Part shown: positions 1,151 through 62,043 of the stretch, piece after piece | How the letters are laid out: each line of letters opens with the position of its first letter | Position numbering within the stretch: the stretch's first letter is position 1 | Assembly: GCA_023231475.1 (NCBI GenBank) | Contig: JALJEE010000635.1 | Coordinates: 1-64,000, forward strand | DNA: 64,000 nucleotides | Reading direction: 5' to 3' | Source: Seison nebaliae | Lineage: Eukaryota | Program-made: the position numbers and the translations under genes | The notes under the pieces: generated by a model | What the model was told of the DNA's origin: nothing | Seen by the model: the letters and a program-made list of their open reading frames with translations, nothing else | The model's database searches: none

Positions 1151-4100
1151 ATGTCGAGACAACCGTATGTGAAGGAACCGCCGTCTCAGTTTGGGAAACC
1201 GACGAAGAATATGTTCAATCTGATTTATGAGGAGGGTTCGATGTTCTCCAATAAATTCGTTAGACAAATTGTTTAAAAACCAAAAAAAAATGAGTGTAAT
1301 TGTTAGAGACGAGAAAATATTCAACGAACTGGTCGAGAATGGATTCTGAAGAAGAAGGAACAGATGATCGATGAGAAGATAGTACATCGTCGGAAGATAT
1401 TTAATGTCGTTAACATTCTCTTCCTATTCAAATGATTAATGAATCGTCAGCATACCAGTCATTGGGAATTGACGGAACAAGATGAAATTGAAAAGTTTGT
1501 TGATCATATCAAGGTAGAACATGAAATGTTCTCGATGGATGACACGCAGAAAGAGTCATGTTATCATAGTGAGAACTTCCATTTCCGTAAAACGGGAACA
1601 GTGAAACAGAGAGAATTCAGTAATTATTTTGATGAGGAGCACGAACGATTAGAGAAATGGAAAACGGAAAATATGGCGCTCATACGACGACAAGAGAGAG
1701 CGAAAAAATTCTATAATAACGCCAGAATGGAGGAATTAGATAGACGACATCTTCAGATTTGTAGTGGAGTCATTCTGGAAATTATTGAATTTGCTTTGAC
1801 TATTTGTCTCCTCCGAACTGATAATCGACGTACTCTCATTCCAATTAAACAATGGCGGAAATTAATCGGAAAGTTTATTCAGGGCAAATTCGAGAAACGA
1901 GAGGAGAGAATTCCTGAACGTATTGAGAACGCGGAGGAGATTACGAGAACGAAAGACAGTCATTTCTGTTATCAGGAACCGGATTGTGAGACGTTAAATG
2001 AGATGCAACTCGAATATTATTTGACGGAATCAGATGAATGGAATTTCTCTCACATTCTTCGACCACATCGATTACAGTCACATATCTTCAACAACATTCA
2101 ACGCATTGTCGATAGTTCGAATCGATCCATATTGATGGTTTTTTTTTCTCCTTCTCATTCTTCAAATCCTCTCAATTACTCCTCGTTTAGAGTCAATTAT
2201 TCCGCAATACTTATTCAAATATATCGACATCGGTGAAACCGTTTCATTTGATATTCATCGGGAAGAGAAATACGAAAATTGCACAAATCGTCAAAATGAT
2301 CGATGGGAAACATATTCCCAATTTATTCATTATCGATTTCGGACAACTCGTAACGAAATGTATTAAAGCTTTTCACGAATATCAATCGTCGAAAGTTTTG
2401 GGAAATTTAAATTTGAATTTTTCAAATCATTTTTCTAGAAAAACAATCAACGTTCCAAAAGTACGGTGGCGAAACAACAGAAAGTTGAAGATAAGAGAAA
2501 GAAAAAAAATAAAAAGAAAAGTTTCTTCTTTCTCTAATCCACTTTCCTTCCTATCTACAATTATCATAGAAGGAGGAAAAAATAAACAAGGTAGTGAACA
2601 TCGAGTTTCTCGCACATCTCCCGTCGCCATCGATATACCGGCTAAAGACGGATTAAATTTAGATGTGGAATTCGGAAAAAGAATTAGCTCGACGAAAACA
2701 CGTAATAAAAAGGTACCGGATGAAGTACTTACGGAATTACTAATTTATCATATCAAGTTAAAATAATAAAATTTAAATTTTAAATTAAAATTTAACGAAT
2801 TTTCCAGTTCATTGCCAAAGGAGAGTAGTTGGATTCTTTTGGACTTTCCCAAAACGTATCGTCAAATGAAATTGCTCGATGCGAGTTTATGGAATATGAA
2901 ATTGGATAATTATTTGATGGACGATCTCACTTTCGTCAATCAACAATTCATCACACAAATCAAAGAGCAATTCGATGTGAGTGAAAGAGGCTCAGCCACT
3001 TCGAATAAAATTTACAAGAAATTTTTTTACAATGCTGAGAATAAATTGATGGAACATATTCCGAGTTGGGAGTTGACGAGAGATCTCCCGCCCTCCACCA
3101 AATGGTACTATTTCGAGAAGTTGCTCCAGGAGAAAATCGAGAAAATGAAGAACGACATTTTCCGTCATCGATCGTTTATTGACGGTGTGTTCCATTTCCG
3201 TTCGAATAATCAGCAAATTGCGTTGAGCATTTTAAAAAATCAACTCACTTCGAAAAGACCTTCCATCAGTTGGAAGGAGATTCAAGAGGAATTAATCAAC
3301 TTCCAGAAGAATTGGCCAAAAATGAAGAAATATTTCCAGAAATATTCAAAACTTTATGAAATAAACATCAACATCGAATCGGACGAAGCACTTTTTGAAC
3401 AAATTCTCTCGCTCATTTATATCGATGAGAACGAGGCTCGAATTGATGAATTTCCATCCGATTCTATCAAAGTCGAAGTGACGAGTCAATCGATAGAAGA
3501 GAATGAGAATTTCGACCAATTTTCAATTTCCGATGACGATTATATCGTCCCACATATCATGGAAAAGAATGATCGAGTCTTTTTAACTTCACCAAATGAA
3601 AGTGTCTTCAATTTGAGACGATATATTTACAAATGGAAAATGTTGACAGATATGCGAATTTATCAGTTATTGGATGTGATGGAAATTATGCGATATAATC
3701 GAGCGAAATATTATCACGATATAATGAATAATAAAATGGATTTTCTACTCTCCATCGAATCGTGGGAGGAAATTCAAAATTTAGTCGATTTGAGATTGAA
3801 ATGTTTCGGGAAACATGAGGGAATGAAAGAGAGTTCCGATATCGATAATTGGCCAACCACCATCGACGTGTTGCACGAAGAATTGTGGAGTAAAATCATC
3901 GAGTTTAAGGAACGTGGCGAGATTTATTTGATAAAATTGAAAGAAGTTTCTTATGTTGAGAAATTCATTCCTCTCATTAATGTCTATTCGATTCTCATGC
4001 AAATTGAATTATGTGCTTATCAACGGAAAATATTCATCATTCAAACCATCTTCAATAAAATGGAAGAATTTGAAAAAGAAATTATTTGTGCACCATGTCC

Positions 4101-6387
4101 CGCTTTGCCTTTCATTAAGAAAACGGCAAAATCAGAAAATGACGGAAAAACGGTGGAAATTGACGATCTCAATATATGGAAACAAGGTTATGAAGCGCTC
4201 ATTGAAATGTTCATAAAATCGCCTCGATCTGAAGACGATTGGCAGACGTTCTTCCATCAGAACGATCTCTTCAACATGGAGTGTGAGGAGGAACAAATTC
4301 TCTGGAATCAATTCACCGTTGCCATGGCAACGACTTGTTTGGACGATACGGACTATCCAATTCACAAATTCGACAAAAGTACTACCGAATCGTTTCTGGA
4401 GGTGATGGAGGAGACGAAAGCGAGTAAAACAATTCCATCACATGACGCCTCCCAATATAATTCGAATGAATCGAATAACGTGAAAATGGAAGAGGAAGTG
4501 GTGCCAACGAGTGAATTTCGAATATCTGATGATATTGACGATATGGACGAGACATTAGTAATGACGGAGAAAGAAATAACTCTCGAATCTGAAGAGAAAA
4601 TTACGATCAGTTTATTGAAACCACATGTGCTCGATATGATTTATTATCAATATAATTTAATTGTTCGTCGGTTGGTCCGAATCTTCTTTCACGGAATTAC
4701 CATCATGAGAGATTTGAAGAAGAAACGAGAGGAATCGTTCGTGTTGATGAGATCGTTTCTCGGTTCGGCCTTCTATTTCCAAAAGACTCAAATTGACGAA
4801 TTAATCAACAATTGTAAAAATCAACTATTGACCAAACAACATATTCTAAATATGCCGATATTGGCACCATCAATTTATCGTCATACCACATTCACTCCAT
4901 TCCACCGATTAATAGTTGGCCGAGAAGATTTTCTGCTCATGGAACATTCGACTCTTCTCGATAAAAGATTAACTTTGTCGTTAACTGAGGCGATGAATTT
5001 CATTCAAATATTCGGTAAACAACTTCCGTGGCGAACTCCAAGTGAAAGCTTGAAAAAAACACAATCGATTACATTGAGTTCTCTATCGACACATATGATA
5101 ACTCTCACCGAATCAACGAGTGATTGTGGAGCTTTAGTGGAGCGGGATAATATGGTAAAAGTGGAAGAATTTGCTCGTCTCCTTTTTCAGGAAATTCAAG
5201 GAATGATAGATAATGATAAATTGAATAAACATTGGAAGAAATTCAAATTCACTCAAATTCTCCAAATGGTCAAACTCTTCACCAACAACACCGATGTCAT
5301 CGATTGGAAGTTGTGGCTATTGACGATGATTCAACCGTTTCCCATTCCGACAACGAGACAACTCGTCAAATATCATGGCTCACTCAGTCAAGCCGATAAC
5401 TACATGAGAGGATATATCGACAAAAGGAAATTCATTCAAATTCCTTTCTGGTTCGCCAAAGTCAATTATTCAAAAATCCCAATAACTGATGAGTCGACTC
5501 GTTTACAATACGTCGATTCGGAAGAAAACGATTATACAACTTTCAAACATTTCCTTTGTACTCTCTATCATATCGACAATAATACCTTCTTCCCCAACGA
5601 CGTGACGATGAATGAGAAAGTAAGAAAAACGACATTTATCGATTATGAATTATTAGTTCATATTGATTATCAATTTGATTAATCAAAACCATTTTCTCTT
5701 CATTCATTTCTCAGTGTCAACATTTAGCATTGACTCCTAGTGTCTCATTGAGCACACTACGACAATTGGCGTTAGATGTCGACGATTATTTGTATATCGA
5801 TGAATCAGTCAGTTCACGACGGACCACCTCCACCAACATTTGGGAGTTTTTCATTTCCGTTTTTTTTAATTTTTTACCATTTTTCTTTCAGTGATTCCTG
5901 GAAATGGACTTATGACAGACTGGACACGTTATGGAACGCAAGTTCCGTTACTCGTCGTACTCCGACCGTTTCGATTTATCCCCAAAAATTAATTGACGTT
6001 AATTAATTGAAAATAATTCAAATTTCTAATTCCATTTTTATGGTTTTTCTATCAAACAGTTACTGGGTGATGAGAATGATATGATGGAATCCGAACGACT
6101 CAAAGAATTGAATGAACCAACTTTTCACAAAAACCAATTAACAGCAAAATTGCCCACAATAGTTTCCATTTGATTTCTCTCACACTCAATTCACTTTCTC
6201 ATTTTAGTACTCGATCATGGAAATGTTGAATGAAGTGGGAGAGCAAATGACGAGAGATTCGGGAGGGAAAATTCATAACGTGTTTACGGATCCGGTGCCA
6301 TTCCATTATCTCGCCTCGTCGTCATTATTCAAAGACATCCTAATCAAATATTCCACCAATAACGTCCCGATAACTTTCAAAAAATGA
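1151..6387 (+). CDS. SPEF2: Sperm flagellar protein 2 (SPEF2/KPL2)-like central-pair protein, multi-exon; 5' end uncertain
   Basis: ORFs 1439, 2233, 2812 and 5776 join in frame through short introns (donors 2138, 2395, 2521, 2757, 5656, 5846, 5998, 6162); stop TGA 6385-6387. Recognised SPEF2-like segments: adenylate-kinase-like 'KVPDEVLTELLI...WILLDFPKTYRQMKLL' and EF-hand region 'IDWKLWLLTMIQPFPIP...FIQIPFWF'. Confidence 0.7.
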
Positions 6388-11442: not shown

Positions 11443-12483
11443 ATGAGAATAAGTTTATTACATTTGTTAAAAAATTTGAGTCAGGGAAAAATGAGCAAAT
11501 CAGCCAAATCTTTACCACTCGCCACACTTGATGATTTGGATTTGAATAAATTCGAATATATCAATTTATTTTTGGATTATGATGGAACATTGACGCCAAT
11601 AGTCGATAATCCATCAGATGCTTTATTGACGTCATCGATGTTTGACGTGCTTACCAAATTATCGAAATTACAAGGCGATCATGAAAAATTCAAATTTTCC
11701 GTTTTCATTATCAGCGGACGTGATTATGAGGACATTTCGGAGAAGGTTGGTATTAAAGAGATAGTGATCGGTGGTTGTCATGGATTCGATATTCGTACCT
11801 ATTCTACCCAATCGAACCAAATGGAACAATTGCCGAGTATTGGCGAGAAATTCCGGAAAGATTTAGAAATCGTCAATCAGGAAATAAAGGACGAATTGGA
11901 TAAATTCACGATTGATTCGGAAAATTTGAAATCGTTAATTTGGGTGGAGTTCAAACGATATTCGATCGCCGTTCATATGAGAGAATTGAATAAGATGCTT
12001 GGTGAAATGAAGAATGTGAAGGAACGTTACGATAAACAAATTTTCAACATGTTGTCCAATGTCCTTTCGAGAGATCGAAATCATTTGACAGTGAATCGTG
12101 GAAAAGAAATTTTTGAAATTGTTCCGAACGTCGAATGGCATAAAGGGAAGGCAGCGGAATGGTTAACGGAATTTGTTCATTCGGATAACCATCGAAGTTT
12201 TGGAATGAATGACGTGACGAAGGAATTCGATGAGAAGAAATGGTCGAAGACTTTAACATTCTTCCTGGGTGATGATACGACGGACGAAACGGCATTTAAG
12301 GACTTGAAGGAGATCTATCAACGAATTGGTTTAGAAGAGTATTTTCGATCGATCGTCGTGTGTGAAATGGAGGGAGCAGCGAAGAAAGAAACGTTTGCTA
12401 AATATCGTCTCAATTCAACAGACAAAGTCGAAAGTTTATTAAAGAGTCTCGCTCATTTGATTGAATGTGAAAAAAAAGATTAA
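11443..12483 (+). CDS. Stand-alone trehalose-6-phosphate phosphatase (HAD IIB, OtsB-like); start may be the ATG at 11491
   Basis: 'FLDYDGTLTPIV', 'ISGR', 'GCHGFDI', 'WHKGKA', 'GDDTTDETAF' motifs; intronless. Confidence 0.88.
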   Translation: MRISLLHLLKNLSQGKMSKSAKSLPLATLDDLDLNKFEYINLFLDYDGTLTPIVDNPSDALLTSSMFDVLTKLSKLQGDHEKFKFSVFIISGRDYEDISEKVGIKEIVIGGCHGFDIRTYSTQSNQMEQLPSIGEKFRKDLEIVNQEIKDELDKFTIDSENLKSLIWVEFKRYSIAVHMRELNKMLGEMKNVKERYDKQIFNMLSNVLSRDRNHLTVNRGKEIFEIVPNVEWHKGKAAEWLTEFVHSDNHRSFGMNDVTKEFDEKKWSKTLTFFLGDDTTDETAFKDLKEIYQRIGLEEYFRSIVVCEMEGAAKKETFAKYRLNSTDKVESLLKSLAHLIECEKKD

Positions 12484-12536: not shown

Positions 12537-13724
12537 TTAAGTAATTTTCCTAATTTGTTCATTTAACCATTTGATGTAATATTTCGTTCGAGTATACACA
12601 CCAACTCCTTGACATGGTGTACCGCCATAACTGACCACTCCTACAATCATCGCTTTCTCTCCGTCGTAGTCGATCAATGGACCACCACTATCACCCTGGA
12701 GATTAAGCGAAGTGAAAATGAGATTGAAGGAAAATAAACTTCACACGCATCCTTCTCATTCTCGATATCACCCGCACATATCTGTTGGGAGAGATGGAAA
12801 GGATTTCGAAAATTCTCTTTACACACTCCTTCGGAAAGAACTTGGAGTTTCGTTTCTTTCAGAGTTATCGGATGTGTTTCCTCGTCTAACAGAATTATTT
12901 GAACGTTGTCGAAGAATTTTAAGAATAAACCTGCAACTCCCCAACCCGTCACCGTCAATTCATCGTTCAACGAATGGGCGAGAGTGGGCACACAGATGGG
13001 TTCGATTTCATCGAACTCCAAACTAAACGGCGAATTAACTACTATGAGTGCAATATCATTTTTTAGTGTGTTTTTATCATAATCTTCGTGCTTGAAATAG
13101 AGTGGGCGTCTAATGTGATTTGAGTGTAAATTAAAAATATTAACTATTATCATCGATGTCATCTTTCGGAAATGAGTGAAGACATTCATCTTATTAGTGC
13201 CGCTCAATACATTGATTTGATCATCCGTTCTAATTTGTACAGGAGAATTAAATTTTAAATAATCGCAATGGAACTGGAGACAATGTGCGGCGGTCAGAAC
13301 CACGGTTGGTGTAATGATGGCACCACCACATCGAAATCGATTCTCACCTCTTCTTATATCCATATAGACCATCCATGGATACTTGATTCCAGCGACATCG
13401 ACACCGCCGATTATTCGCAATTGTTCCATTGGAGGTATTGTACCACATTCCACCTGATCTACACAATATTTCGTGAAAACGGTGTTTGAAAGAAGAAAAA
13501 ATGTGAAACGTTCAAATTCTTCTAAATTTGGCTTTTTTACCTTTTCTTCAGTTCCACAACATGAATAAAATGTAATAATTTTATGGAATAAATTAATTTT
13601 AACTTTCTCTTAGAACGATAAGCGGTACGGCTATGATCACTACCAGCACAATGACGATGAGAAGAGTGATAAGAATAATGAAAATTTTCTTATTCTCCCC
13701 AAAAGTTTTTTTAATATTTTTCAT
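12537..13724 (-). CDS. Type II transmembrane trypsin-like serine protease (S1A), at least 4 introns
   Basis: N-terminal TM 'IFIILITLLIVIVLVVIIAVPLIVL', activation site 'RIIGG', triad TAAHC / NDIAL / GDSGGP (last motif joined by splicing 'KDACE|GDSGGP'); Asp in S1 pocket (DAC). Confidence 0.88.
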
Positions 13725-15553: not shown

Positions 15554-17122
15554 TTATCTGTAGGGATGTACTCGAGTTTGACTGGCCTGCATTTTTTGAA
15601 ATGGTCGCAAAGCTCCACCATCTGTCAATTGAAAGAGGAATGAAGAAAGAAAAATGGGAAAGAAAAAGAGAAACTGTTTGTGGGCGGAGTGTTACCAGGA
15701 GGTATATTACTAGTGAGACTTTGTGTCACATTATTCAGAGTATTTGTATTATTATCATCTGTTGACGTATTTCGAATTGGCCTGGCCAATTCTTTATTTA
15801 ATAATTAAATAAATTAAATTTAAATGCAAATTAACCGTTGTTAGACATGGACGCTAAATTATTGGCATTCGATAAGAGATTCGTATTAGCTGATGATGTT
15901 AATCCATTTCCAGTGTCGATTCCACTCGCTGGTGCCAACGATGAGAAGATGTTGCTGAGAACGGGATTGTGGAGTAAATTTGAATTTAAGAGATTTAGCA
16001 TGTTCGTCGTCTGATTGGAAGAAGCGACGGGAAGTGATTGTTGTGGTTGTCCATGTTGTCCATTCATCAAAATTGCCGGTTGTCCCAAAATACTGTTCAA
16101 TAACGATGTGGTTCTCTGGTCGGCATTCTGTACATGACTTTGTTGTTGTTTCGCTATATCCAACAAATTGATATTTCCTCGTACATTATTATTATTATTA
16201 TGATTATTGTTGTTGTTGTTGGTATTTGAAATTAATTGGAGTAATTGATCACAATTCATTCCAGTGATTCCTGGAACGGAATTGAGTCGTGTTCCAGTCA
16301 GATTGTTTGGAAGTGACGGTGATGGATTGAGACTTTCTAATTTGATTGATGGTATCGATTGTTGTGGTGGTGCTCCATTCGGAGTTATGAGAGGTGAATT
16401 ATTTAATTGATTATTATTAATTAATGATGATGTTAATGTTTGATGATTTCGATCACGATAAGTTCCGTTTAAAATTGCTAATTCTATTAATTGTCTTCGT
16501 TTCAATTCATCATCTCCCTCACTCTATTCAAATGATTATTAATTTTGAGAAAAAGATGGAAATTAAACGGTTGGAATTAATAATTTTTCTATTTCTTTTC
16601 TTGCATTTTCCAATTTGACTTTATTTCGATTCGACGTGTCTTCCGACGAAATGAGAATATGAAGATCTTCTTTCAAATGTTCCCAATTCGGTTTTCCAAT
16701 CATCGATTCCTCTTTCCTTCGATCTCTAATACTTCCACGACCTCTCACCATAATCTTACATTGAGTATCGTTCTCCAGTTTTTTCGCCGTCATTCCTCTC
16801 GGACCCAAAATCCTTCCGACGAAATTAAAATCAGGATATTCCTTCACCGGAACGAGAACTTTCTGTGTCTCAACTACTAATTCTCCGTCAGCTTCCGGTA
16901 ACTCTGGTAACCTTTTCGGCGTTTCATCAAACAACAATTCGCGAACTCGACGAATTTCTTTAAAAGAAGAAAATGGTGAAAAACGATGAAAAAAACGGAA
17001 TTGAAACCGTCTTCTAATAATCGGCCGACATGTACAAAGAAAGCGGGTAGAGCAGTGACTTGATTCCGATCGCGAATCAACTCGCCCAAATATTCAGCGT
17101 TCGCTTCTTTCGTTTGATTCAT
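15554..17122 (-). CDS. QKI: Quaking/How STAR-family KH RNA-binding protein, 5 exons
   Basis: QUA1 '[20 protein letters not shown]', KH '[31 protein letters not shown]', QUA2 '[22 protein letters not shown]'; last exon ends 'RVHPYR*'. Confidence 0.92.
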
Positions 17123-18033: not shown

Positions 18034-18464
18034 ATGGGAGATGAAGTTCCGAATTAAATTTCTTTAATGAATTTTATTCTCTATTAAACTCTTTAGGCAC
18101 TCTTCATCATCGAAGACATTAATGCGATAGTTAAGGATGTTAGTCTAGCAATAATCTTCTTCCACTTTCTTCTAACTGCCAATTTATAAAGTCGATCGAA
18201 AGTGTAATACGTAACGCTCAATATAATGCGGGGAAAGTGGATGAATGGACGAACGACATCATCGAACAATGTCTCTTAAGTCTCCTGCATTTGAATCGAC
18301 CCTTTAAATATATCGTCACTTGTACGATCTTACAAAAGACTGGTGCTGGTTACCATATGGTCTGCAGCTATTATTGGGATCAAACATCCGACGGTGTCAC
18401 CACCATCAGATGGGAAAGTAGAACTTTATATGTCATCGTTAGTGTATTCGGATTAGCTATTTGA
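18034..18464 (+). CDS. Dynein light chain Tctex-type (DYNLT1/3 family), 3 exons
   Basis: Spliced MGDE|ALFIIEDINAIVKD|SIESVIRNAQYNAGKVDEWT...FKYIVTCTILQK...YWDQTSDG; introns 18046-18096 and 18139-18191. Confidence 0.9.
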
Positions 18465-19594: not shown

Positions 19595-21610
19595 TTAAAT
19601 GAAATGATGTTTCTCTGTTCGATTGGGATTGTTGGCATCTTCAACAATCTGCAAATTATTCTCATGTTGAACGTCCTTATCCAAGACGTTGTTGTTGCTT
19701 CGATATCGTCTAATGATTTTGGGAGATGCGAATAATCGATTGAAACTTTTACTCTTACTCATATCGGACGTTGGTGACTGATGTGGTGGATTTGGCTGAT
19801 GTTCTGTGTGTGAAGTATCATTCGATTTGAATGTGTCCTCCAAACAATCATCATAATAATCATCGAAAGTGTTACAAGTGTTGTTGTTGTTGTTGTTGTT
19901 GTTGTTGTGACGGAGATTGTTGGAAGATGATTGAATTGGAGAGTCGGCCAGTTTCGAATTTAAATTTTCTATAGTGAATCGATCGAATACGGTTCGGAAG
20001 GACATGGAATTCATTGAAGAGAATGAAGATGGTGAAGTAGGAATGGATGTGGTTCCGTTAGAATCGGACGAGAAAGCTAACGGATTCTCACGAATTGTAC
20101 ACAACGTCTCCGAATTATTCTTTCCCGTACTATTCATATCGATATCGTTCAATTCATTTTCTACAGATGGACAACTAACAATTGTTGTCGATGTTAACGG
20201 TTTCTCAACAAATGGAGATATTATCGCTTGTTGTTGTTGTTGTTGTTGGTTTAAAGAGTTTTTATCACTTGATTGATTTAATAATTTTTCCATTTTCATT
20301 CGATGATTCATCGACGATAAACTTGAAATGTTACTCTCGATTGTGGTATTACTGGTGTAGGCAGTGGTGTTGGATTCAGTCGCCTGAATATTGGGCACAC
20401 GATGACGATCGTGATTGTTATAATAGAAATGATATCGCTTCGGTTCGGGTATTGATTGAGATTGTTGTTTTTGTTGATTCTCTTCTTGTTCGATAATTTC
20501 CGATTTTTTCGGTTGATGTGATGATGATGGTTGTCGATTGGATTGAGATCGATGTCGATGGAAATGGAAAAATTGTGGAAGTTTAGAGAATCGTTCCGTT
20601 TTCACTTTGGTAGACAAGTCGTTCATTTGGTTATTTGTGGATGTTTGCCTATAATGTTTCTGTTCACAATCGTCGACTGATGCGACTGACGAAGATTTGG
20701 AAGATGAAGTGAGAGACGAATTGCAAAAGTATGTCGAATGATGGTAGATTTCCTGTGGAATAATTTTGGAAGCCGTATAATTATCGAAAGATGTTTGATG
20801 GTTATTGATGAGTTGAAATCGGTTCGTCGAATAGTTCTCTTTCTTTGTGAATTGATTCAATCGTTTCAAGTTTTCCTTTCGTCTCCGATCCTTCCTCCAC
20901 AAACAAATGAATATGATACTAATCATCAATGAAACGATGAGAAGAACGATTCCACTTATGAGGAATGAGAAGAATAATTTCGAATCTGTTCCAAATAAAA
21001 TAAATGTGAAATAAAATAAAGAAATTTTAAACTTATCTCCACGTTATCCTTCTCTTCGATGAGACGTGTTTTTGTTGTCATACTTTCCGATGTATGTGAT
21101 GGTGGTGGAATATGATTCCTTCTCATTGATTGACTAGATGAAATGAATTGATTCGATCGATTATGTTGATTGGCAATCAACTTTCTCAACTCCTCCTCAA
21201 CAATACAATAGTTGCAACAACTGTATTTCTTCTCAATCTGATACGAGCACTTCCTCTCATTCTCACACTCAACAATCCAACAATTGCCCATCACACAATC
21301 ACATTCGGCACATTTATCCACTGATTTCTGTTTGAACGTTGACGTCAAATTACCACATAATCTCTTCTCATTCTCAATTCGCAATTTCTTCCGTTTTCGT
21401 CGTTTCGGACAACATGACAATTCCGGTTTGATACCACAAATCCGATTTGAATAATTCTCGTCACAGAGTAACGTCATCGACGATTGTTCTCGTGAATTGT
21501 AACGATCGATACACGTACATCTATTACAGTCGTTAATATAGAACACTTGATCAGGAACGAAATATTTACAGATGTTCAATTGATCATATTCATTCTTTAT
21601 CGACGGTGTC

Positions 21611-21662
<52 letters not shown>

Positions 21663-39085: not shown

Positions 39086-39472
39086 TATTCCAATAACGAA
39101 TTTTCCAATAAATTAACGAACTAAGAAAAATTCATTAAATTTTTGTTTGTAAGCCAAAAATTTGAATTAAACATCATCTAATAATTCTCTAAATTCCATT
39201 CGAAAATATTCCATTAAGCTGTCGTCTATTAGACATTCTAAAAGGTAACTTTTATAAAATTAATATCAGTTTATAAACGGTTTTCAAACGGTTTTCAAAC
39301 GTCAGCCATAATGACTCTTTTTAATTTGAATTTTAAATCTATTTATTTCGCTTGAATGAAGTGGGGAAAGAAGTGGAAGGAAGTGAAATATTAAATTTAA
39401 TAGTGGAATGATGACGATGATGGAAATGAGAAATATAATTCAAATAAAAATTTGGGAGAATTTAAGTAAAAA

Positions 39473-45659: not shown

Positions 45660-47823
45660 TTTATTTAAACTCTTATTATAATAATTAATTAATTAATTAA
45701 TAATGGAAATTTTTTGAAAATTATTTCTAATTTCTCTTCTCGTTTAATAGTGGTTTGTGTTATCGAATTCGAAAGATTTTCTCGATTCTCCAACTCATCA
45801 TTGAATTGATCTATCGAATATGAATTAAATTTGATATATGAAAAAATAGTGTTTCGTCAAAAAAAAAAAAACATAAATTTCTCTCTCTCTCTCTCTCTTT
45901 TCAAACAATTTTCATGTATCTATCAAATACATTTGTAATTTCTCTTTCTTCTCTCCCATTGACAGTGATAATTCACTTATCAAACAACATATGAAACGAG
46001 GAGTAATGTACAGAGAGAAAATGGAGTGACATAGAAGAAAAGAACATACCAATCATTTGATTGTATAAATTCATGTCCGCATAGATATGTATTCACACGT
46101 CCTTCACATCCAAAAGTCGATTGAAACGTACATGAAAAAGTCATTTACATATTCCTGATACTCATCAATTGGAGAGAATTGGGGAGAATTATGAAAATAG
46201 TTTTTAAAGAAATTTCATTGTGAACATTCTTCCTCCATCCAATCGAATGGAAACATGAAACAATGTGTGATGATGGAGCCTGAAATTTTGTTTGGAAGAA
46301 AATGAATTCTTCAAGAAATGTTTGAGGAAGCGAATAAGGTGAAATGTCATCAACTTATTAGTTTGCTCTCTTTTTTCCGCAGATGATTCATATTATTTAA
46401 CGAATGATTAATTAATTTTTGAAAATTTCCAGTTCATCATCTTGTTCAATATTTATGTAAGTTGACCAAATTCGATAACTAAATTATTCGGCCTAACCAG
46501 TTTGCTTAACTTTCTCTTTCATTTGTTTATCTCACTTCCAATTTAACTTTTCATTCCACTCGACATCGTCCCCCCTTAATCATCACTATCAGTAAGAGAT
46601 TCTCTTCATTTTCCAAGGTTTCCTTTATTTACATAACGAATTGTTGAAAGTTGGATTGTCATCTTGGAAACTTCTTTCAATTTCAATGTCTCCATTATAA
46701 TTAGTTCATCCAATTTCACTCACAACAACAACAACAACAACAACATGTTCAAATGGAAATTGTTATTATTTGAAATTGTTTCATGACATATCTCAATTCA
46801 ATTCAATCAATTCCTTTCCAGAAAGATTTCTTCTTTCCAAATGACGTATAATAATTATTACATAATTCCAATTAAGAATCTAGTCGTCTTCCGAGACGAT
46901 TTATCATTTTCATTCGGAAATGAATAAATGATAATTTACTCTCGTCGTGATAAGAGTCGAGTGTAGAAAGATTGATTACAGACAAAAATTATCTATAAAC
47001 ATATGGATATGGTGAATATGAAATTTCAAATTAAACAAATTTAATTTACTTTAAAAATTTTAAGTTTCCAAAAACAGTTCACTTATTTTCATGGAGAACA
47101 CAAAAATTTCACATTTCTTCACAAATTCTTGTGTGACTCGTTTTTCATGAGTGTTCAATAACACTTTGACAAAATTGGAGGAGAAGAATAACTGATAATT
47201 CTCTTGAATTTTTTTTAATTATTCTCATTCTCTTTATTATTCGCTTTTTATAAGAGTCGAATATGAATCTCAATTGACGGATAAAGTAAATTAAAAATGG
47301 TTGATAATGTTTATTATTATATTGCATTTAGTGTGCGAATATTATTGTGAATAATACGTACTATATATATATATATATATATATGTATTATCTCCTTTCT
47401 GATATAAGCGGATATTATATTTTAATTAGATCGTCAGTTAACAGGAAATTGCCTAAGCGTATCCCAATCTACTTTGTTGTTGTTGCAGTTGTTGTTATAA
47501 ATTCCTTTCAATTTTATAAGCTTGTTATTTCAAAAAAAAATATTAAATTAAATTCTTGATGATGGTGATGATGATGAATTAAAGAAATTTAATAGAATTA
47601 AATAAATCTTCTAAAGAATTTGAAGGAGTACGAAAGGAATATATTAACGTCTTCAAATACTTCGAAAAAGGACGTCATCAGTTTAAGCTTAAATTCTGAA
47701 TGGAACCGAGAAATATGATGGACAGACGAAATGGGAATGAGTGAGAAAAATTTGACACGTATATCTAGGAAGGAAGAAACAGAAAATTCATTATTTCATT
47801 TTTGCGCTTTTAATTCAGCTCGA

Positions 47824-48441: not shown

Positions 48442-49634
48442 CTATTCGATGTCGTTATTATGTTCCCACAAATATTTCTTTAAACTTTGACATTGCTGAT
48501 ATCGGAGCATTTCCTTGATAGCGTTCGTTCGTCGTGAAGGATATTGTTTATCATTCTGTAGAATTCTCTTCATCGTTTTCACTTCCTTCAACGTCAACAA
48601 ACAATTAAGAATAGATTTGTGAGGTAGACCATCAGATGGATTATTGAACGATTCCATCAACTCATTCGAATAGTAGAAGAGAATGTACATGATAACTAAA
48701 AGGAACGATAAGATCATTGTAACAATCATAATCGTTCCCCATCTTAATACACGTGCACCAGTTATATATTGGAGTGTTTTACGTACAGCGTTGACGATAA
48801 TACCGAAAACGAGACGGAAAACTGAAAAGGAAGAATGAAATGGAATTAAACGGAAAAAGGAAAACTGTTATAAACGAAAGTTTTATGTTTAGCGAAAGTG
48901 AGTGCACGTCCACGAAAATGATCAGAACGTCGAATTAGAGGAACGGCGATAAAATCGGATGCTCGATAACTCCGTAACGCCTCATTGACACTAGGTTTCT
49001 TTTGGCTTTTTTCTTTAATGGAAATTGGAATTTTCAAATTAGCCATCATTTTCGTCTTATTGAATGCGGTGGCAAAATTGTAAATTGTTGGCGGTTCAAC
49101 AAAATAATAAACCATGAGAAAATGATCTACAACTTTTTTCACTCGAGGTGCTAATTGAATGATTATGTGAGCCGTACTTTTTGGTTGAATGACACCCTGA
49201 TATGGTCTAATCGCATAATATGGTTGATTAACTAACACTTTGAAAAGGAGAGCGTCTCGATTCACATTCTTTAATTTCATCACAATTTGCTCACATTCTC
49301 CCGACGGTTTCCCTATCACCAATTTAGCTGGTAAAGCGACCAGATCATATGGTGGCAATTCAATATGAAATTGATTCTTTTTCGAAAAATTCGATACTTT
49401 ACTTATGAAACTCTGATTACTATTGACTGATGTTTGACTAACGGACGTTAGAGATGTGGATAATTTTAGTTTCTTTATCGGAGTATCGATTTCCGATTCG
49501 GCTGTATGGAAATTAGCAATCGATTCCGCTTGATACTGATAACTTTTTCCAGTCACATAATAATAGGAATTGGTGATATCAGAAAAAGGAACGTCATCAG
49601 ATTCGATAGTCGATACACCATCTTCTGATTCCAT
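48442..49634 (-). CDS. MSP-domain (VAP/MOSPD-like) membrane protein, 2 exons
   Basis: 'MKLKNVNRDALLFKVLVNQPYYAIRPYQGVIQPKST' MSP-like; intron GTTTTC...TTCAG (~48822-48865) joins to an exon with TM 'IMIVTMILSFLLVIMYILFYY'. Confidence 0.65.
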
Positions 49635-50256: not shown

Positions 50257-52823
50257 TCAATATTCACCTGTCGATTCGGAATCGTCATCAACTCCTTTCC
50301 CTTCCTGACTGAATTCCATCGAACTCGATCCAACTTCATTATAGAAATGATAGTTCTCGTCCGTCATGTCGATGGCCCATTTAAATTTGTCTCGTTGTGT
50401 CTTGCTATAAAGTTTAGTTATTGGAATATTGAACTTTTTACTCCTACACAATCAATGAACATGATCAATTCAAATCATTAAAATCAACTAACCAAGCAAC
50501 TGTGATACGAGGATCTAAATAATTCAATTTGGATGTACCTAAGGCGATCGACTTATTTTCTTTTTTATCTGTCGTCTGCATTTCCAACTTATCTTTCCTC
50601 TGACTTAATCGATCCACATCTTTTTCTTTTTTCTCCACATTTCTAAATTTTTTAAATGAAAAATACAAATAAAAATATTTGACAATTAAAAAAAAAAAAA
50701 TTTGACAATTTAAAAAAAAAAAATTTGACAATTTGAAAAAAAACTTTGAAAATTAAAAAAAAAACTTTGAAAATTAAAAAAATATATTTGAAAATTTAAA
50801 AAGAAGAATAATAGAATAAAAGACAAAAGAAAATAAACTTTTTTGCTGTTAATGATCGATCGGATTTAGCAGAGAGACGAGCTTCTTTCAATGACTTCCT
50901 TGCAATTTTCAACTGATCAGTCACGTCACTTAATTTAGTCTCTAAATTTTCGATGGATTTATCGAAGGTTTTGGGCGGTGCACGACGATGGTTGCATAGA
51001 ATGGCTACTTCTCGATTTGCTCGATTGTATGCGAGAATTTTTTGTTCACTTGTTGCGGCGGCTAATGAAAATGAATGTTAAATGAAAATTAATAGAAAAA
51101 TGAACGATTTGTTTGGATGTCCAATTGTTCCTGTAGAGTTCTGGAAGCGTTATACGTTCGGAAAACTTTAGCGGTCAATCCGGTCATGAGTTCTTGAAGA
51201 TATTTGTTTAAATAAGAAGTCTAATAAAAAATTGAATGAAAGAAATGGAAGAAATAAATAAATTTAACTGTAAGCCAATCAAAGAGATCTTCGCTCGGTT
51301 TCTTATTGTTAAGGAAGAGTAATAGACGCTCATAAACTTCTGGAATGACTTTGACTTTGTTTTCATATCGAATTGAATCTTTTCCGAGGAAATCGAATTC
51401 TACATAATAATCTTTTTCTTCTTCTACTAAATTGACATGCTCACATCTTAATGAACAACAACCGACTGTATCAGCTTCATCTTCATCTTTCTCGTTACCA
51501 GCTCTCAATGCGAGAACATCGATGAAATAGAGAGCGACGGCTCTTTGTGCAATTTTCCGATCTTTCGATTTCATATCAGCCATATAATTTGCACGGACGT
51601 TATTAATAATGTTATGGAGACGTCGAGCCTTTTCAAATTTCTCAAGATCTCGTTCACCTTTCATTTTTGAATTAGCATTTAACATTACATATTTGATTTG
51701 ACCTTGCACATTCTCCGTCCATGTTGCTAACCAGGAAACTTTATTATCATGAATTATCTGTTTCCAACGATGGTTATTAGGCGCTGATGGAACTGGACAA
51801 CATTTGGACATATTTAACGTGATATCTTCTGGTTGGACACGTCGTTTCACTTTACCTCGTTTCGGATGTTCGCCACGTCCACGAAAAAGACCGGGTGGTT
51901 CTAATTTCCAATTACCCACCAATTGTTTATGACCATCAATGAGACAAACACCATAATTGAGTTTGAGAAGATTTTCAGCTTCTTTTGCTGCTTTTTTCTC
52001 TTCTTTTGATCGCGCCTTTTTCTCCTCAGATAAATGCTCGTAATATGCATGAACTTCTCGGAAATTACATTTAGATAAATCTTTAATAATTTCACGTTCA
52101 CTTTTCAACATGCCATCACGCCAATCATTAAAGAAATTTGTATTAAACACTTCTTGTTTAGTATAATCATGATTTAACATTTTTGCATAAAATCCCATAA
52201 TCTCTTCCGTTAATAACGATAATTTCATTGGAACTTTATCATAATAAAAATTTATGTTTTTTGGAAGTGACTCATATTCTGGTGCTAACATAACACCTTT
52301 ATGATGCAATGTCGTCCATTTTCGACCATCTTCATATCCTTTCTCTTTCCACCATTCCCATACATCTTCCGTCACTGCTGATAATGATGCTGATGATTCT
52401 TTTTTTTCTTTTTTAATTTCACTTTTCGTTTCTGTCATTGATTTCCTTTTTGGAGCTTTTCTTCCAACTGACATCGTCGATATCGATGATGATGATTCTT
52501 TTTTGATCTGATGTGTCGGATCTGATAAACGTTTACCGTTCGTCAACCGTTTATTTTCACTGTTAATTCGAGTTGCACTAAATGATACTTTGTCAATTGG
52601 CTCCTTTTTCACCTTTTCCTCTTCCTCCTCTTTTATTCGCACTTTCTTCACCGAATTTATATTACCATGATTATTCACTTTTTGATGGTTTCTAACCGTC
52701 ATCGATATCGGTGTACTTTTCCCATTATTAGTTTTCTGTTTCATTTCAATTTTTCTTTTTAATAATATTTTTCTTCGTCTTCGTCTTCTTTCCGATTCTT
52801 CGTCTGATGATGAAGATGACGAC

Positions 52824-52859
<36 letters not shown>

Positions 52860-54185: not shown

Positions 54186-57025
54186 ATGATGTTCCCAGCA
54201 CAACCTGCTCTATCGATGACTGAATTGGCATCGCAATCAGGAATGCCATCTTATCTCTTCCAGAATTCGACCATTATTAATGATCCGAAAATACAATCCA
54301 ATTCCGCCATCTCTTCCAGTCATGTTCAGACGATTAATCGCAATAAATCCGATTATTATTATCCCCTTCCATCCGCCCGACCACAATCTCAACAACTCGT
54401 TAACAAATCGAAACAACTCGCTCAAAATTTGCGAAGTTTGGCCGCCGAAAATATGACAGGTCGAGTAGTTTGTAGTGACCCCACCGAATTCCGTAAAGCA
54501 CATCCCAGTCTAATGAATGAGGGACCACACGCCAATAATTGTTTAGCGCCGAGTGAGATTTATTTGTATAGGAAACTCAATCGTCAAGATCATCATACGG
54601 AAGAATATCAATTTAATCGTCTCATTATCAGACGAGGTGATAAATTTCGAATAGGAATCGTATTGAATAAAGATTTCGATGGTGAGAAAGATTATCTCCT
54701 CATACAATTTGCTACTGGTAGTCGACCACTTTCATCTCAATCGACTCTTATTCGGTTACCGGTCAAATCGACAGAAGTCGAAGAACAAGGATGGAAATTA
54801 TCAACTTTCTCTTATGAGAAAGATTCGAAATTACTCCAACTCGATATTACTCCCTCTGTCAAATGTAACATTGGGAAATATCAGTTGTATGTGGAAACAC
54901 AATCGTTACCAGATAAAGATTCGAAGAATTTGAACGATATTCGATCTCATCGTTTCCGTTATGCGGAAGACATTTACATTCTCTTTAATTGTTTCAATGA
55001 GAACGAGGAGACATATTTACCCGTCTCTGAAGCACGAGAAGAGTATTTGAAAAAGACGTTCGGTCACATTTTCATTGGTCATCAATCGGCACCACAAAAA
55101 CGATTTTGGTATTTCGATCAATTCGCTTTCGGAGTTCTCGATACAGCGCTCAATCTTCTCGATCAGAGTGGTCATCAATCACATTCACGATGGAAATGTG
55201 ACACGGTAATTAATACGATCAATTCTCAAATTGTCGCCACTCACCAAAACCATCAGGGTATGATTCTGGGAAAATGGCATCAACATCATCAGACACATCC
55301 CAATTCCACTTCATCCGATCCCTTCCAAGTGAATTGTGCGGCGGAGATAATTAAGAATTTCTTCAGAATTGGAAAACCGTTTCGATATGGAAATTCCGTT
55401 ACTTTCGCTGCCGTTCAAGCCACTCTCTTACGAGCTTTGGGTGTTCCTTGTCGAATTGTCACAGGATTCAATGTGGCACTTGATGTACTAGAAACGAATC
55501 ATGCGAGTAATATTCATTGGAATCGAAACGGAAAATTATTGAGAGCTCTCAATGTCGATACGATTGCTATGTATCATTGTTGGAATGAGATTTATTTGAA
55601 TGGGGATTGGAAGGCGGTAGATCCGATGCCACATCTCGGTTGTAATCAATCCAAACCTATCGATGTTAATGAGAGGAATGGAGAGAAATTCCAACGAATG
55701 TTAAACGGAACTGAAGCGAATTGGCTAGTGGAAAATAATGGTAATGTCAATCTCATAAGTTATTAATTAAAAATTCTTAAATTTTATTTTATTTATAAAA
55801 TATTAATTAAATTAATTTTTATTTAAAAAATATTAATTAAATTAATTTATATTTTATTAATAATCAATCATTAAATTAATTCATTTTTTCATGATTTAAA
55901 GATGTGAATAAGGAAGCGTTAGGTAGCAAAATTATAACATCGTCAATCGATGACGAAGTAGATCCAATCGATTTGACGGATGAATATAAATCGAATGAAA
56001 CATCATTTGATGATAATCGATCGTTATTACGACGATTGAGACAGAACGTTAATGACGACGACTCTGACGATGATAATGACGATGAAATAAATCAATCTCA
56101 AATTTCAGCAACTGCAACTCTCCCATTAGCGCCTCATGTCAATGGTGAGAATATCAAAGTTTACAGGATTTTATTTTTCCGTTTTTTTTTTCAATTTTTT
56201 TCCGTTTTTTATCAATAGATCGAATGTGAAATTAAAAATGAGAGCGACGAGAATAAGACTGTGAAAGTATTCTGTCAACCAGTCATCTGTTTTCCGACTG
56301 GTGTCCCATTTCTTCATTTGAAGCCTAATCAAGAAACCGTCGAAATCGAATCAAATGGTTAATATTTCCATCAAATCTGATCTATTGTCATAATATCTAT
56401 ATTGTGTGTATAGAGGAAGAGAAGAGAACATTCATCACTTCACTCTCACAATATGGGGAGAACACGATGTTCTTGAATCGACAAGAATGGTTGATCAGAT
56501 ATATAATTCTTTTCCATAATCCGGAACATGATGAATTTCTTTCACACACTCTATCCACCACTTTCATTTATCCATCGAAGAATTTGTTAAGAGTTCGCCA
56601 TCCCAATTTTTCTCTTAAATTTCATTCAAATTCCTCATTTATTCCACCATTAGACGGTAATGGATCGAAATAAACATTCGAAGGAAAACGGTGGACGATT
56701 AAAAGTCATCGTTTACAATTCATTCAAAGATCGTTTGCCGTTGACGAATGTGAAAATTAGTTTGTTGGGACTGAAAGAAAGAGGCGATAATAAAAACCGT
56801 TCAATGGCTTTAGGGTTCATTTTCCTCTCATCATTTTCATAGAATTTCATTTAATTCTTTTTTAGACGTCCATTGGATCATGGTCAGAAAGCGGAAATAT
56901 TCCTACCATTACCTCCAAAAGAATCGGACGAACAAACGAAATTGTTGTTGACGATGAATTGCGATCAGATTGGAACGTATTCCAAATATATATATTTATC
57001 AAAAATGAGTGAGAAAATCGATTAG
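54186..57025 (+). CDS. Transglutaminase/annulin-like protein, catalytic Cys replaced by Ser; 6 exons
   Basis: N-terminal 'LIIRRGDKF', core 'YGNSVTFAAVQATLLRALGVPCRIVTGF', 'YHCWNE', 'WKAVDPMP'; introns at donors 55759, 56159, 56358, 56593, 56815; stop 57023-57025. Confidence 0.85.
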
Positions 57026-57647
57026 ACGGAAGACGAATCATCATCTTTCTTCTAAAAAGAATAGATTAGTTTCTATTTCCATAATACTTCTCTCGAACAA
57101 TCTCTCTTCAAAACAAAATTTCTCTTCTTTACTCTCATTTTTCTTGTTCGTCTGAAGAAGTTTTTCTTTTTTAAATTAAACAAAAATAAAAATGATAAAA
57201 TTATCAAATAATCACATTCCATCATAAATAATTTATTTTTATTGATGATTGATGAGAATTGATTATTATTATTATTTAATGAAATTTCCGTCGTGATAAA
57301 TTAGAAGATAAATTTAAAAATTTTAATTCTTCATCAATGTTGATGAAAGTGGTGGAAACTCCGTAAGAGATTTCCGATCGATTCTCAAAAATCAATGTGA
57401 GAGTCAGAGTCGTAAGAGAAAATTGAAATTGTTAAGGAGAATACGATGTAGTAGATCATAATAATAACGAGTTTATCACATTCTCTCCGTACAAATTTCA
57501 TATTGTCAAATTAACGACATTTGTAATTTTGACGGTTATAAAAATGAGAAGGAAATGGAAATGATTCGAAAAAATTATTTTTTATTTATTTTAATTCGAA
57601 CAATTTATTATTTTCATTTTCGTCCACTTCAACTCTACTATTGGATT

Positions 57648-58213: not shown

Positions 58214-59787
58214 TTAATGTAGAATTAATCCGACCTGAATTCAAATCAAAATTAAATTGAACTTAATAAAATTTTCGAACTTTCTCTTTGGGAATTGGTG
58301 CACATCGCCAATTGTACAAATAGTATTGAAGTGCTCCATCACCACGACCGAATTTGAGTTCTTGTAATAAAGTCTCATTAAATTCGCCATGATCCAACAC
58401 GTTGAAAACATCCACTCCATCCTAAAACATTCAAATAATTTTTGAATTACGAAAAAAATTTGAAAAAATTTGAAAAAATATCGAATGAATTTTCAAACGT
58501 TTTTAGCGAATGTCAATACGTCTTGTAACAATTCTTTCATTGTCAACGTGTTCGCCACTTGTTGGAATGAGTAGGCGGCGATGATACTGTCATGTTTCTG
58601 ATTATCGACACAAGTTGATGGTAAGAAATAATATGAAGCGAAATCCGTTATTTTTCCATCATTATCCTTAATTCATTATATAATTAATTAAAATAAATTA
58701 ATAAAAATATATACTTTGAGAACATAAGAATGAATGACATCTTTGATGGGGAGGAACCAATGTTCGATTTCTTCCTCCGTATAAATGGCGGCAAGATTCA
58801 TTTCTTTTAATTTCTGAAAAGAAAAATGGGAATTGTAAATAATAATGTGTATAAGAAAAGAAATAGTTTGTGGAAACGTTGTTCATCAATATCTTTACTT
58901 CTTCCACTTCTTTCTTCTCGAATTTGGACCAATTGTGTTTCGGTTCCTATTCCGACGATTGAAATTTCGAATAAATATAATGAGAACTTCGGGCAATTTA
59001 TGGAGACGAATGTGTTGACTCATCGATAGATTAGGACGAACGAACGAAAATTTCACCTCGATCAATTTCTTCGGATTAATACTTCGATGCCAATAACTAG
59101 AAATGGTGACGATGATGGAAATGATAAATGAAGAATGTGAAATGAACGTGCATTTACTGACTGGCGTCGGGAGGACAACTCCAGCAGTGTAGACACTATG
59201 GAAGATACCGGCGATATTTAATCGTCTAGTAATCTCTCGAATTAGAACTGGAACAAGTCGCATTTTCCTTAGTGCTTTGTGCACACAAAGATAATTAATT
59301 TCGCTGCTATGCAATTCGTCATTATATACTCGAATTTTCGCCGGAATTCCCGTTATGACACCCACCAATTTATCACCTTCTTTACGACGAACGGCCAAAT
59401 GCCATTTCTTACTCCATCCTGGTGGTGTTAATGACCATCGAAGGAAATTTTTCGAATATCGAAATCGGAATAATGATTCATGATCTTCCACATAATGATC
59501 CGCCAACAATTCGTAGAGATCATTCATCTCCTTCTCATTATACACGTCCAATTCAGCCCATTGGTAAGTGGGCGGGAGGGGGAGTGGAGTGGAGCGCACA
59601 TCTTTCTCCCCCTCAATACTTTCACCTTCGATCTTCACATTTTTCAATTCATCGCTGGTCTGCGGAACAGGTTGTGTCGACCAGAAGCGCCAATCATTTG
59701 TCCTGCAAAACGACAAGAGAGAATCTCTCCAGTAATTCCTTCAAATGAACAGAGAGAAGAATGTGGTAACGATTTATCATTCGACAT
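58214..59787 (-). CDS. NMT: Glycylpeptide N-myristoyltransferase, 8 exons
   Basis: Spliced [19 protein letters not shown], 'HYVED', '[12 protein letters not shown]', '[11 protein letters not shown]', 'DVFNVLD', '[16 protein letters not shown]', C-terminal 'VGLILH*'. Confidence 0.95.
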
Positions 59788-60703
59788 ATCTCGATCGATC
59801 TGTGGCTAATCGTTGTTAGTGAAATGTTCAGAAAAGCATCAAATTTTGTGAAAGCAAGCCAAATTATTGATTGAGAACTAAATTGAAATTTTTCTTCGTT
59901 CACTTCTTTTATGGTCGAATGCTGTTGTCATTGAAGCAGAACATGATCGGCCCAACTCCTTCAAAATCTCGTCTTTCCTCTACCATTTTATGACTTTGTA
60001 GAATTTATTTCATTTCCTCACCAAAACTCTCCCTCCTACAACCGTTAAATACATTCCTTATCATTATTAATATATTCCATTTTAATACCATTAATACTGA
60101 CAATTAATCATCGTCAAATTACTGGTCATTTATTCATTTAATTAAAATTGACGATAATTGATACGGATGATGATAATCAAAGTAATAAATATTAATATAA
60201 ATTAAAAAATACAAAAAATTCGTTATTTTAGACAATTAGTAAATTTTCAATCTGTTAAGTTCCTATTTTCCATCCATCACTTTACAATACGGAACGTTTG
60301 TGAAAAACTAAAAAAAAAAACAATTTCGATATCATAAATTAGAATTAACTAAAAGAAATTCGATATTTTAATATCTCAATTTTTCTCTTAAGACTTTAGG
60401 GAGAATATTTGGATGGAAATTCTTATTTTCTTCTTTTTCATTAAGTCGATAATTTGATGGAACTAAAAAAATTGAGAATTAAATTTAAACTGATGAAAAT
60501 AGAATGAATTATAAATTTGAAAATTCGATTAATATTTAATTATAGTGGAATATTATAATTAATGTCATAATATTATTATATAAAAAGGATTATGCGAACG
60601 TTTCTTCGAATGGAAAAGGATATGAATCGAATGAATTTATTTTAGTTTCAATTTCCTATTTAAATTCAAAATGGCAACGCGAACCACTATATTATGGTAG
60701 ATT

Positions 60704-62043
60704 ATGATAAGAAGAATCATGTGGTATTATCGATTAGGAGATAAGCCTAACAACGCCATTGTCCATCTATTCGTCATAATTTTATTACTGCTCATAATGT
60801 TTTTGTGTTATTTGGAGGATGTACAATTGACCGAATCCTCTCAATTCCACTTGAACAGTCCAATGGTCTTCCCTTACTATTATCAAGCGGAAACTATAAA
60901 TAGAATGAAAGCAGAGAACATGAAGAAATGGAAGGACGTTCGGGAGACATTGAAATATTTGATTCCTTCAATGAACGATTTTTGCTCATCTGAAAACATC
61001 ACTAATCCAAAGACCACCATCGAGAAATTGTGGATGGATTTGGTGAGAAATAAAACATTTCGTTTCTTATCGAAACACGAATGGGAAACGATTTTCCTAA
61101 AAATTGCTGAACATGAAATTTATCCAACCAACGTCTTCTTAAGAGAAGGTTTCTTATTAAATTTGAAAAGTGAATTGAGAATGGGAGACCGGAAATTTAG
61201 AAGGATTTATTTCTGGTTAGACAATTTAATTTTTGAAAAACACATGTCAATCAAATGTACCTTCATATGGTTAATACGACTCAATTACTTGTCTTTTATC
61301 GCACCAAATGAATTCTCCGTCAAAATCATAGTTCATTTTCGTAATTTTTTCACTTCCTCTATATCTGATAACAGATTCCGGTTTTTTCGAAAACGAACGT
61401 TCTCAATAATTATTTCATACTTCATCGATACGAAACGTCGAAAGAAATTGGACGATTTACTGAGAAGAAATTGAGGATTAATTCGTTGAAGAGGCCGAAA
61501 GTTTTCTTGGTGAATCTCCGACAAAATTTCACGTCGTCACTCCCGAAAGATTTTGGATATCCAATTTTTTATTTGGAAAAATATTTCAATGAGAATGAAC
61601 GAAAATTAAATTTCGCTACCAAAATCATTTTGTTCCTCAACAAAATCGTTCATACTTACGATCTCGTTCTCTTCACCAATACAATAAATGTCACTAAACC
61701 ATTTTACGAGAGAGACGGAACGATGAAGGACATGTTCAGTGGAATTTATTTCGTTTATGGGAACAGAAACGTGGGAAATTTTGATGTGGAAATGGCGAAA
61801 TGTTTACCACAATTCTCCTATTTATTCAAAACCTATCGATACTCTTATCATGAAATCCATCATATATTCATGAAAGACAATTTGCTACTTCGACTAATTA
61901 TGAGAATAACAGCGTCCTTTCTATTCAGTAGTCCATGTGGCACAGTCGGTAAATTATGCAATGAGAAGAAGGTGTGTCTACCATTCGAATTGATGACTTT
62001 GGATGTTGTTACTCAATTCTTCAAATTTAATAATTTAAATTAA
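60704..62043 (+). CDS. Hypothetical type II membrane protein, 2 exons
   Basis: N-terminal TM 'AIVHLFVIILLLLIMFLCYL'; a GTTCAT...AACAG intron (61331-61374) joins ORF 60704 in frame to ORF 61471. Confidence 0.55.

Follow-up and report, generated by a model that had tools for sequence, protein, structure and literature searches.

Nearly all introns that can be placed in a 64-kb stretch of Seison nebaliae DNA (the window; all positions refer to it, and all donor counts are for this one stretch, not genome-wide) start with GTT. Seison lives as an epizoic animal, belongs to Rotifera-Acanthocephala and has compact genes in a genome of ~46 Mb (PMC8351084, whose available text has no word on donors). 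The typical animal 5' splice site, or donor, reads agGTaagt and has a purine at intron position +3 in its consensus (2026 paper, PMC13644364, available in part). Database gene models and a blind homology alignment together place 26 donors firmly in the window; 25 of these begin with GTT and one has a purine at +3. This frequency lies above expectation both from the T content of intron bodies (0.51; p=7e-7) and from the frequency of T after T (0.59; p=2e-5). An earlier note on this DNA had claimed that almost every intron starts with GTT, and for the placed introns we confirm this as far as junctions deduced from protein and reading frame allow. The seven donors it quoted as examples lie where it had put them, with the letters it gave, and the one exception it named, GTATAT in the NMT gene, is present at 58714. 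As placed here, the introns are of the GT-AG type and restore the conserved frame, yet they lack a GTRAGT-like donor complementary to the normal U1 small nuclear RNA (snRNA).

Four database gene models, of which P0121 and P0241 are named Seison nebaliae, served as intron guides, namely P0121 (NMT, SNEBB_010326), P0241 (SPEF2, SNEBB_010309), P0242 (a SPEF2 isoform) and P0245 (transglutaminase, TGase). A search with the NMT exons returned P0121 on top at 93% identity and the next match at ~50%, P0241 was the sole match to SPEF2 (100% identity), and P0245 is 100% identical to the TGase of the window. A single 78,463-nt contig carries P0121 and P0241 together with two single-exon proteins of the window. 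Splicing at GT..AG yields translations equal to all four models in a letter-for-letter mapping. In NMT and SPEF2, the protein fixes the intron length, and at each of 17 junctions only a single GT..AG cut is compatible with it. In these models GTT opens 21 of 22 donors (SPEF2 10/10, TGase 5/5, NMT 6/7). The SPEF2 introns map exactly on P0241 on the forward strand (donors are given with the last exon base in lower case and lengths in nucleotides, nt): 1259..1306 (cGTTAGA, 48 nt), 1409..1450 (cGTTAAC, 42 nt), 2138..2190 (gGTTTTT, 53 nt), 2395..2438 (aGTTTTG, 44 nt), 2521..2572 (aGTTTCT, 52 nt), 2757..2807 (aGTTAAA, 51 nt), 5656..5714 (aGTTCAT, 59 nt), 5846..5891 (aGTTTTT, 46 nt), 5998..6059 (cGTTAAT, 62 nt) and 6162..6207 (aGTTTCC, 46 nt). 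All ten donors are GTT; the count of eight introns in the earlier note was too low, the additional ones being those at 1259 and 1409. The intron at 2521 ends 3 nt further upstream (2569) in isoform P0242; this tandem acceptor TAG/AAG at 2569 and 2572 (+) gives rise to two database isoforms that differ by one residue. The TGase introns, mapped on P0245 on the forward strand, are 55759..55901 (aGTTATT, 143 nt; an in-frame gGTAATG 18 nt upstream is skipped), 56159..56218 (aGTTTAC, 60 nt), 56358..56413 (gGTTAAT, 56 nt), 56593..56653 (aGTTCGC, 61 nt) and 56815..56865 (gGTTCAT, 51 nt).

The blind check employed a spliced aligner without a +3 term and profiles built exclusively from non-Seison homologues (39/120 TOP1 matches, 40/120 NMT matches and 35/150 TGase matches). 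It recovered six internal NMT, four TOP1 and two TGase introns, with GTT at 11/12 donors (TOP1 4/4). A further GTA call at 52665 in TOP1 was dropped as spurious, being 300 nt of low-complexity open frame; if kept, the count would be 11/13. On the reverse strand, the NMT introns supported by both P0121 and the blind alignment are intron 2 at 59097..59147 (cGTTCAT, 51 nt, stop-free in frame), intron 3 at 58947..58987 (aGTTCTC, 41 nt), intron 4 at 58814..58877 (cGTTTCC, 64 nt), intron 6 at 58422..58498 (cGTTTGA, 77 nt) and intron 7 at 58235..58280 (aGTTCGA, 46 nt). Intron 1 at 59703..59770 (cGTTACC, 68 nt) follows the P0121 map, with a homology margin of 1.3 bits only. Intron 5 at 58667..58714 (aGTATAT, 48 nt) is the one firm exception, placed by both methods; a GTT 9 nt upstream of its donor scores 10.7 bits lower. 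The TOP1 protein search had no Seison protein among the matches listed, and the four TOP1 introns (reverse strand) come from the blind alignment: 50444..50492 (gGTTAGT, 49 nt), 50643..50838 (aGTTTAT, 196 nt), 51062..51105 (cGTTCAT, 44 nt) and 51221..51268 (aGTTAAA, 48 nt). In addition, every frame-compatible GT/GC..AG alternative up to 40 nt away was scored with a hidden Markov model. The chosen junction was top-scoring in 16/16 tested introns, with a margin below 4 bits in two and no rival donor in two. The sequencing runs X1-X5 cover the introns without joints and are DNA-like, and runs X6 and X7 gave no alignment; these runs speak neither for nor against splicing.

Thirteen introns beyond the firm set were placed by motif or frame without blinding. 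All are GTT, bringing the count to 38/39. In the trypsin gene (reverse strand), an intron at 12696..12739 (aGTTTAT, 44 nt) joins DACE to GDSGG and is flanked by Pfam Trypsin matches 74-177 and 177-220, and motifs place two others, 12886..12930 (gGTTTAT, 45 nt) and 13091..13144 (aGTTAAT, 54 nt), both stop-free in frame. Two N-terminal trypsin introns are placed by frame and composition only (13459..13509, cGTTTCA, 51 nt, stop-free in frame) and by frame only (13546..13603, aGTTAAA, 58 nt); a search of this gene against solved structures gave no match at E 1e-15. In the QKI gene (reverse strand), intron 1 at 16958..17007 (gGTTTCA, 50 nt) restores RLLEDEIRRVR relative to GLD-1/QKI, intron 2 at 16524..16568 (cGTTTAA, 45 nt) begins where the match to solved QKI stops and is found by a blind frame path, and intron 3 at 15792..15835 (gGTTAAT, 44 nt) is placed by frame. 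Intron 4 at 15622..15674 (aGTTTCT, 53 nt) is uncertain and the weakest of the thirteen, as it relies on a C-terminal motif, a frame-only path favours GTA at 15710, and Pfam gave no confirmation of the last QKI exon. Blind frame paths give the two Tctex introns on the forward strand, 18046..18096 (aGTTCCG, 51 nt) and 18139..18191 (tGTTAGT, 53 nt), while single introns of a CRIM1-like gene (20986..21032, reverse strand, aGTTTAA, 47 nt) and an MSP-domain gene (48822..48865, reverse strand, aGTTTTC, 44 nt) are placed by frame only. An unnamed gene starting at 60704 adds one more GTT at 61331..61374 (forward strand, aGTTCAT, 44 nt), from the best blind frame path with its end read from the sequence. 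Four of the introns listed (59097-59147, 13091-13144, 12886-12930 and 13459-13509) are stop-free multiples of three, so their retention would escape decay and open reading frame finders read through them.

Bdelloid rotifers offer a comparison at orthologous introns. In a single metagenome scan, Adineta TOP1 retrieved 13 loci (L001-L013) with Rotaria TOP1 as best match, of which nine were counted and L004, L006, L007 and L008 left out as copies of the L005 genotype. In this thin sample of one gene from one outgroup clade, the +3 base is A in 34, T in 7 and G in 1 of 42 donors. These donors represent ten intron positions, with an A majority at eight and T at two; by distinct position, +3T thus stands at 2/10 in bdelloids vs 25/26 in Seison (Fisher p=1e-5). 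Two TOP1 intron positions are common to both, in position and phase, and both are GTA in bdelloids and GTT in Seison. The one after LFD(R/W)L(T/S), Seison intron 51221..51268, is GTA in 6/6 bdelloid loci, and the one inside the W of PRI(S/T)VAW, Seison intron 50444..50492, in 5/5. Therefore, the switch affects old introns. Bdelloid introns resemble those of Seison in their length of ~50 nt, a purine at +5, A at +7 and an excess of TCAT near the 3' end, but differ in +3A (34/42), +4A (33/42) and -1G (24/42). They are equally short and AT-rich (42% T) and mostly have A at +3; hence, short AT-rich introns alone do not cause GTT. All seven bdelloid GTT donors read GTTTGT and come from two positions. 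This minority class is complementary to U6 ACAGA and is kept at one position in 6/7 loci.

The donor shape was derived from the 39 donors that include the 13 placed without blinding, and the several position tests are uncorrected. The earlier note had described +4 to +6 as nearly random. This is borne out for +4 (T18 A13 C8) and for +6, which is at background (purine 12/39, G 2/39). At +5 (A19 C8 G6 T6) it fails, since T is depleted (6/39 vs 52% background, p=3e-6) and G enriched (6/39 vs 4.5%, p=0.008); +5 is a purine in 25/39 (p=6e-5) and A in 19/39 (p=0.007). At -1 (A21 C10 G7 T1), G is at background, T is avoided and A is in excess (p=0.03), and -3 is A in 24/39 donors. The Seison consensus can thus be written as approximately (A)(A)(not T)/GTT-H-R-N-A, in which the -1G and +4A preferences of bdelloids are lost. 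Intron length is 41-77 nt in 37/39 (median 51 nt) and G content 5%. The branch-site motif YTRAY is not enriched (14 vs 14.2 in shuffled introns), and no strict branch site appears to make up for the weak donor. TCAT, a pattern picked post hoc, occurs near the 3' end in 19/39 introns vs 8.7 expected. An ab initio scan of GT sites with a composition step proved too noisy, yielding +3 T in 48 of the top 100 compared with 47 and 54 for the CT and AT controls. The U12-type donor RTATCCT, which includes a GT form, was found at 0/39 donors, and U12-type introns were rejected on this ground. For U12-type donors, ATATCC is given by PMC3033335 (available in part).

Beyond the GTT donors themselves, the earlier note had proposed a rewired donor recognition. 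The part of this that stands is a shift of consensus in the Seison lineage, which is supported by sequence comparison in that composition does not account for it, bdelloids use A, and the in-frame GTA rivals present in 3/16 tested introns score 12-21 bits worse in 3/3. As its cause we tentatively prefer a Seison U1 with A opposite +3 in the normal register, that is, a predicted U to A change at U1 position 6 and an ACUAAC-like arm. A change in the U1 arm is favoured on two grounds: GTA, which would be the better partner of an unchanged U1, is nearly excluded, and Entamoeba, the published lineage with U at +3, has such a change. An unchanged U1 pairs +3A better than +3U, and a sweep to T would therefore need a changed reader. 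The change of +3 from A to T would postdate the bdelloid split. Pairing would be weak even with the changed U1, so that intron ends might be found mainly by intron definition, over ~50 nt of G-poor sequence, and no firm donor signal would remain other than +1 to +3. Seison donors match the complement of normal U1 at 3.8/9 positions and bdelloid donors at 5.9/9, with mean duplex energies of -1.4 and -5.4 kcal/mol, respectively. Compared with background, matches beyond +1 to +3 give p=0.03 for the normal register, p=0.07 for the shifted register, p=0.43 for a bulge and p=0.46 for U6; the leftover donor signal is weak and lies in the normal U1 register, not in the shifted one. An Rfam scan of the 64-kb window found no match and hence no snRNA in it.

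Several points weigh against a changed U1. An A opposite +3 lifts the mean Seison duplex merely to -2.1 kcal/mol. The Entamoeba donor is strict over six bases and that of Seison is not. The excess of +7A (18/39, p=0.02) is weak, coming from multiple uncorrected position tests. Atypical donors, mostly with changes at +4, occur without a U1 change in Thecamonas, five Mamiellales and 69 yeasts, according to the available part of a preprint (10.1101/2022.06.08.495308). In three genes that lack homologues, paths based on frame alone give GTT at 6/11 donors, with candidate GTG donors at 40677 and 62590, and the worst-case total including such calls is 45/51 (88%). These five non-GTT calls would also fit donors that are misplaced, a window that is unrepresentative or database models biased by their predictor, as junctions were deduced from protein and frame. 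We nevertheless consider such an error highly improbable. The blind homology alignment returns the same donors, with the best junction chosen in 16/16 as described, and longest-frame paths without homology are unreliable, recovering 4/7 true NMT donors along with two false non-GTT calls; they were used just to seek exceptions. Equally hard to maintain, and slightly less credible still, is T-rich composition or mutation bias under relaxed selection at +3. Intron bodies are indeed 51% T, and T follows T in 59%, but the frequency of GTT exceeds both (p=7e-7 and 2e-5), T makes up 46% at +4 to +13 and follows internal GT in 14/30, and bdelloid introns with 42% T use A. Composition was rejected as cause on these p values and on the bdelloid +3A.

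Two further explanations leave U1 unchanged. In one, the main rival, which is possible although we regard it as rather unlikely, U1 has little weight and the choice of +3U is made later, either through a G-U wobble between this base and G44 in the U6 ACAGA box or through diverged proteins (U1C, LUC7, PRP8), with the remaining information coming from intron definition. The +3 base faces U6 G44, where A or G interact weakly (PMC11732430, available in part), and a gain in U6 pairing has been proposed for GUUUGU in Entamoeba by the same partly available preprint (10.1101/2022.06.08.495308) that reports several atypical-donor lineages with normal U1. Moreover, the seven bdelloid GTT donors are all the U6 complement, though from only two positions, and normal U1, as noted above, pairs very weakly with Seison donors, in agreement with this explanation. 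However, the other bases of the U6 register (+4T, +5G, +6T) are at background (1.10 vs 1.08 expected, p=0.46), and donor decay alone gives no T, as myxozoans and Dicyema have more reduced donors and yet GTa (PMC13644364, in its available part). In the other, pairing of the unchanged U1 is displaced by one base, through a shift or a bulge, so that A7 reads +3U and C9 reads +1G. This would cover +3T and the lost -1G at once, agrees with -1A (21/39) and +5A (19/39), and such registers are known at human sites (PMC4856993, available in part). Against it, +6G is found in 2/39 donors, +7T in 13/39, below background, +4 purine is at background, and +5A is frequent in bdelloids too (22/42), in the normal register. 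Overall, the shifted register reaches p=0.07 and the bulge p=0.43, vs p=0.03 for the normal register. We rejected the shifted register as main model because the displaced consensus (+4R, +5A, +6G, +7U, -1A) is not seen (p=0.07), and consider it improbable in general. The U1 arm change thus remains our preferred, if provisional, reading.

Some further observations concern the lineages sampled and the neighbouring genes. A contig of run X5 (depth 2.4, ~82% identical) at 58713-58815 covers NMT exon 5, and its alignment ends just past the GT of the GTA donor. This hints at a different +3 base there in the diverged lineage, although a single shallow contig may err. Low-depth short contigs with ~82-92% identity on the exons 45132-45276, 54436-54595 and 59394-59639 in X1, X2 and X3 indicate a second diverged lineage in these runs, and two lineages of Seison nebaliae have been described (PMC8351084, available in part). 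Alignment of X1, X3, X4 and X5 to NMT at 80% likeness for donors of the second lineage gave exon fragments only. Intron density is very uneven, as long intronless genes adjoin genes with 7-10 introns. Intronless genes encode a P4-type ATPase (42078-45692, judged from its translation), an amine-receptor-like G protein-coupled receptor (26663-29545), an ankyrin-BRCT protein (36458-39112) and a stand-alone trehalose-phosphatase (11491-12480, forward strand, PF02358). An unnamed gene at 39476-41299 (reverse strand) encodes ~510 aa with a signal peptide and a C-terminal membrane segment; it has ~6 introns, one donor that on frame grounds is GTG (40677) or GTA only, and no Pfam match. Another at 62282-63290 (forward strand) has a Thr-rich mucin-like tail, and its first intron may begin with GTG at 62590. 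The transglutaminase-like gene (54189-57036, forward strand) is ~30% identical to its nearest relatives, and its catalytic motif region looks diverged, with RYGNSVTFAA lacking Cys in the translation. The enzyme is possibly inactive.

The literature covered, which excludes supplements and most subscription journals, contains no description of Seison donors and none of GTT as the majority donor in an animal. The main text of a 263-species intron survey mentions neither Seison nor GTT (PMC11347168), and the available parts of PMC10125929, PMC10158995, PMC10599564 and PMC3033335 hold no animal GTT case. Seison nebaliae might be the first animal with a genome-wide GTT code and a co-evolved U1, with introns retained and orthologous introns changed from GTA to GTT since the bdelloid split, a proposal that we advance with some reserve. 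An animal lineage with a switched +3 is a natural test of what reads this base, be it U1, U6 or a protein. Seison poses the question how a reader and its thousands of sites can be altered jointly while large-scale loss of introns is avoided. In practice, donors in its clade may be placed wrongly by gene predictors whose training used other animals. Roca and Krainer reportedly described in 2009 a shifted U1 register at atypical human 5' splice sites. Shifted or bulged human sites share a +3 pyrimidine and the loss of -1G with Seison but are rare and marked by +6G/+7U, neither of which is enriched in Seison (PMC4856993, available in part). Even the animal donors with the strongest reduction on record retain A at +3, among them those of myxozoans and Dicyema japonicum, which read GTa (PMC13644364, in its available part). 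Like Seison, these are host-associated animals with short introns and a three-letter donor signal, whereas their introns measure 22-27 nt and begin with GTa, compared with a median of 51 nt and GTt. U at +3 as a rule is already known from Entamoeba, where the donor is GUUUGU(U), 88-90% GUUUGU, and U1 reads ACAAAC, while U1 of Mastigamoeba reads ACGUAC (Roy and Bowser, bioRxiv 10.1101/2022.06.08.495308, available in part). The strict GUUUGN consensus of the Entamoeba type is not found in Seison (GTTTG in 1/39, +4T and +6T at background, +5G in 6/39), for which the placed introns nonetheless point to a real donor shift at the level of the lineage. Both have near-universal +3U, GT-AG ends, short AT-rich introns and a host-associated life. 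Entamoeba, however, is an amoeba with few introns and a donor that is strict over six to seven bases, whereas in the animal Seison a gene of the window can have as many as ten introns and only +1 to +3 are fixed.

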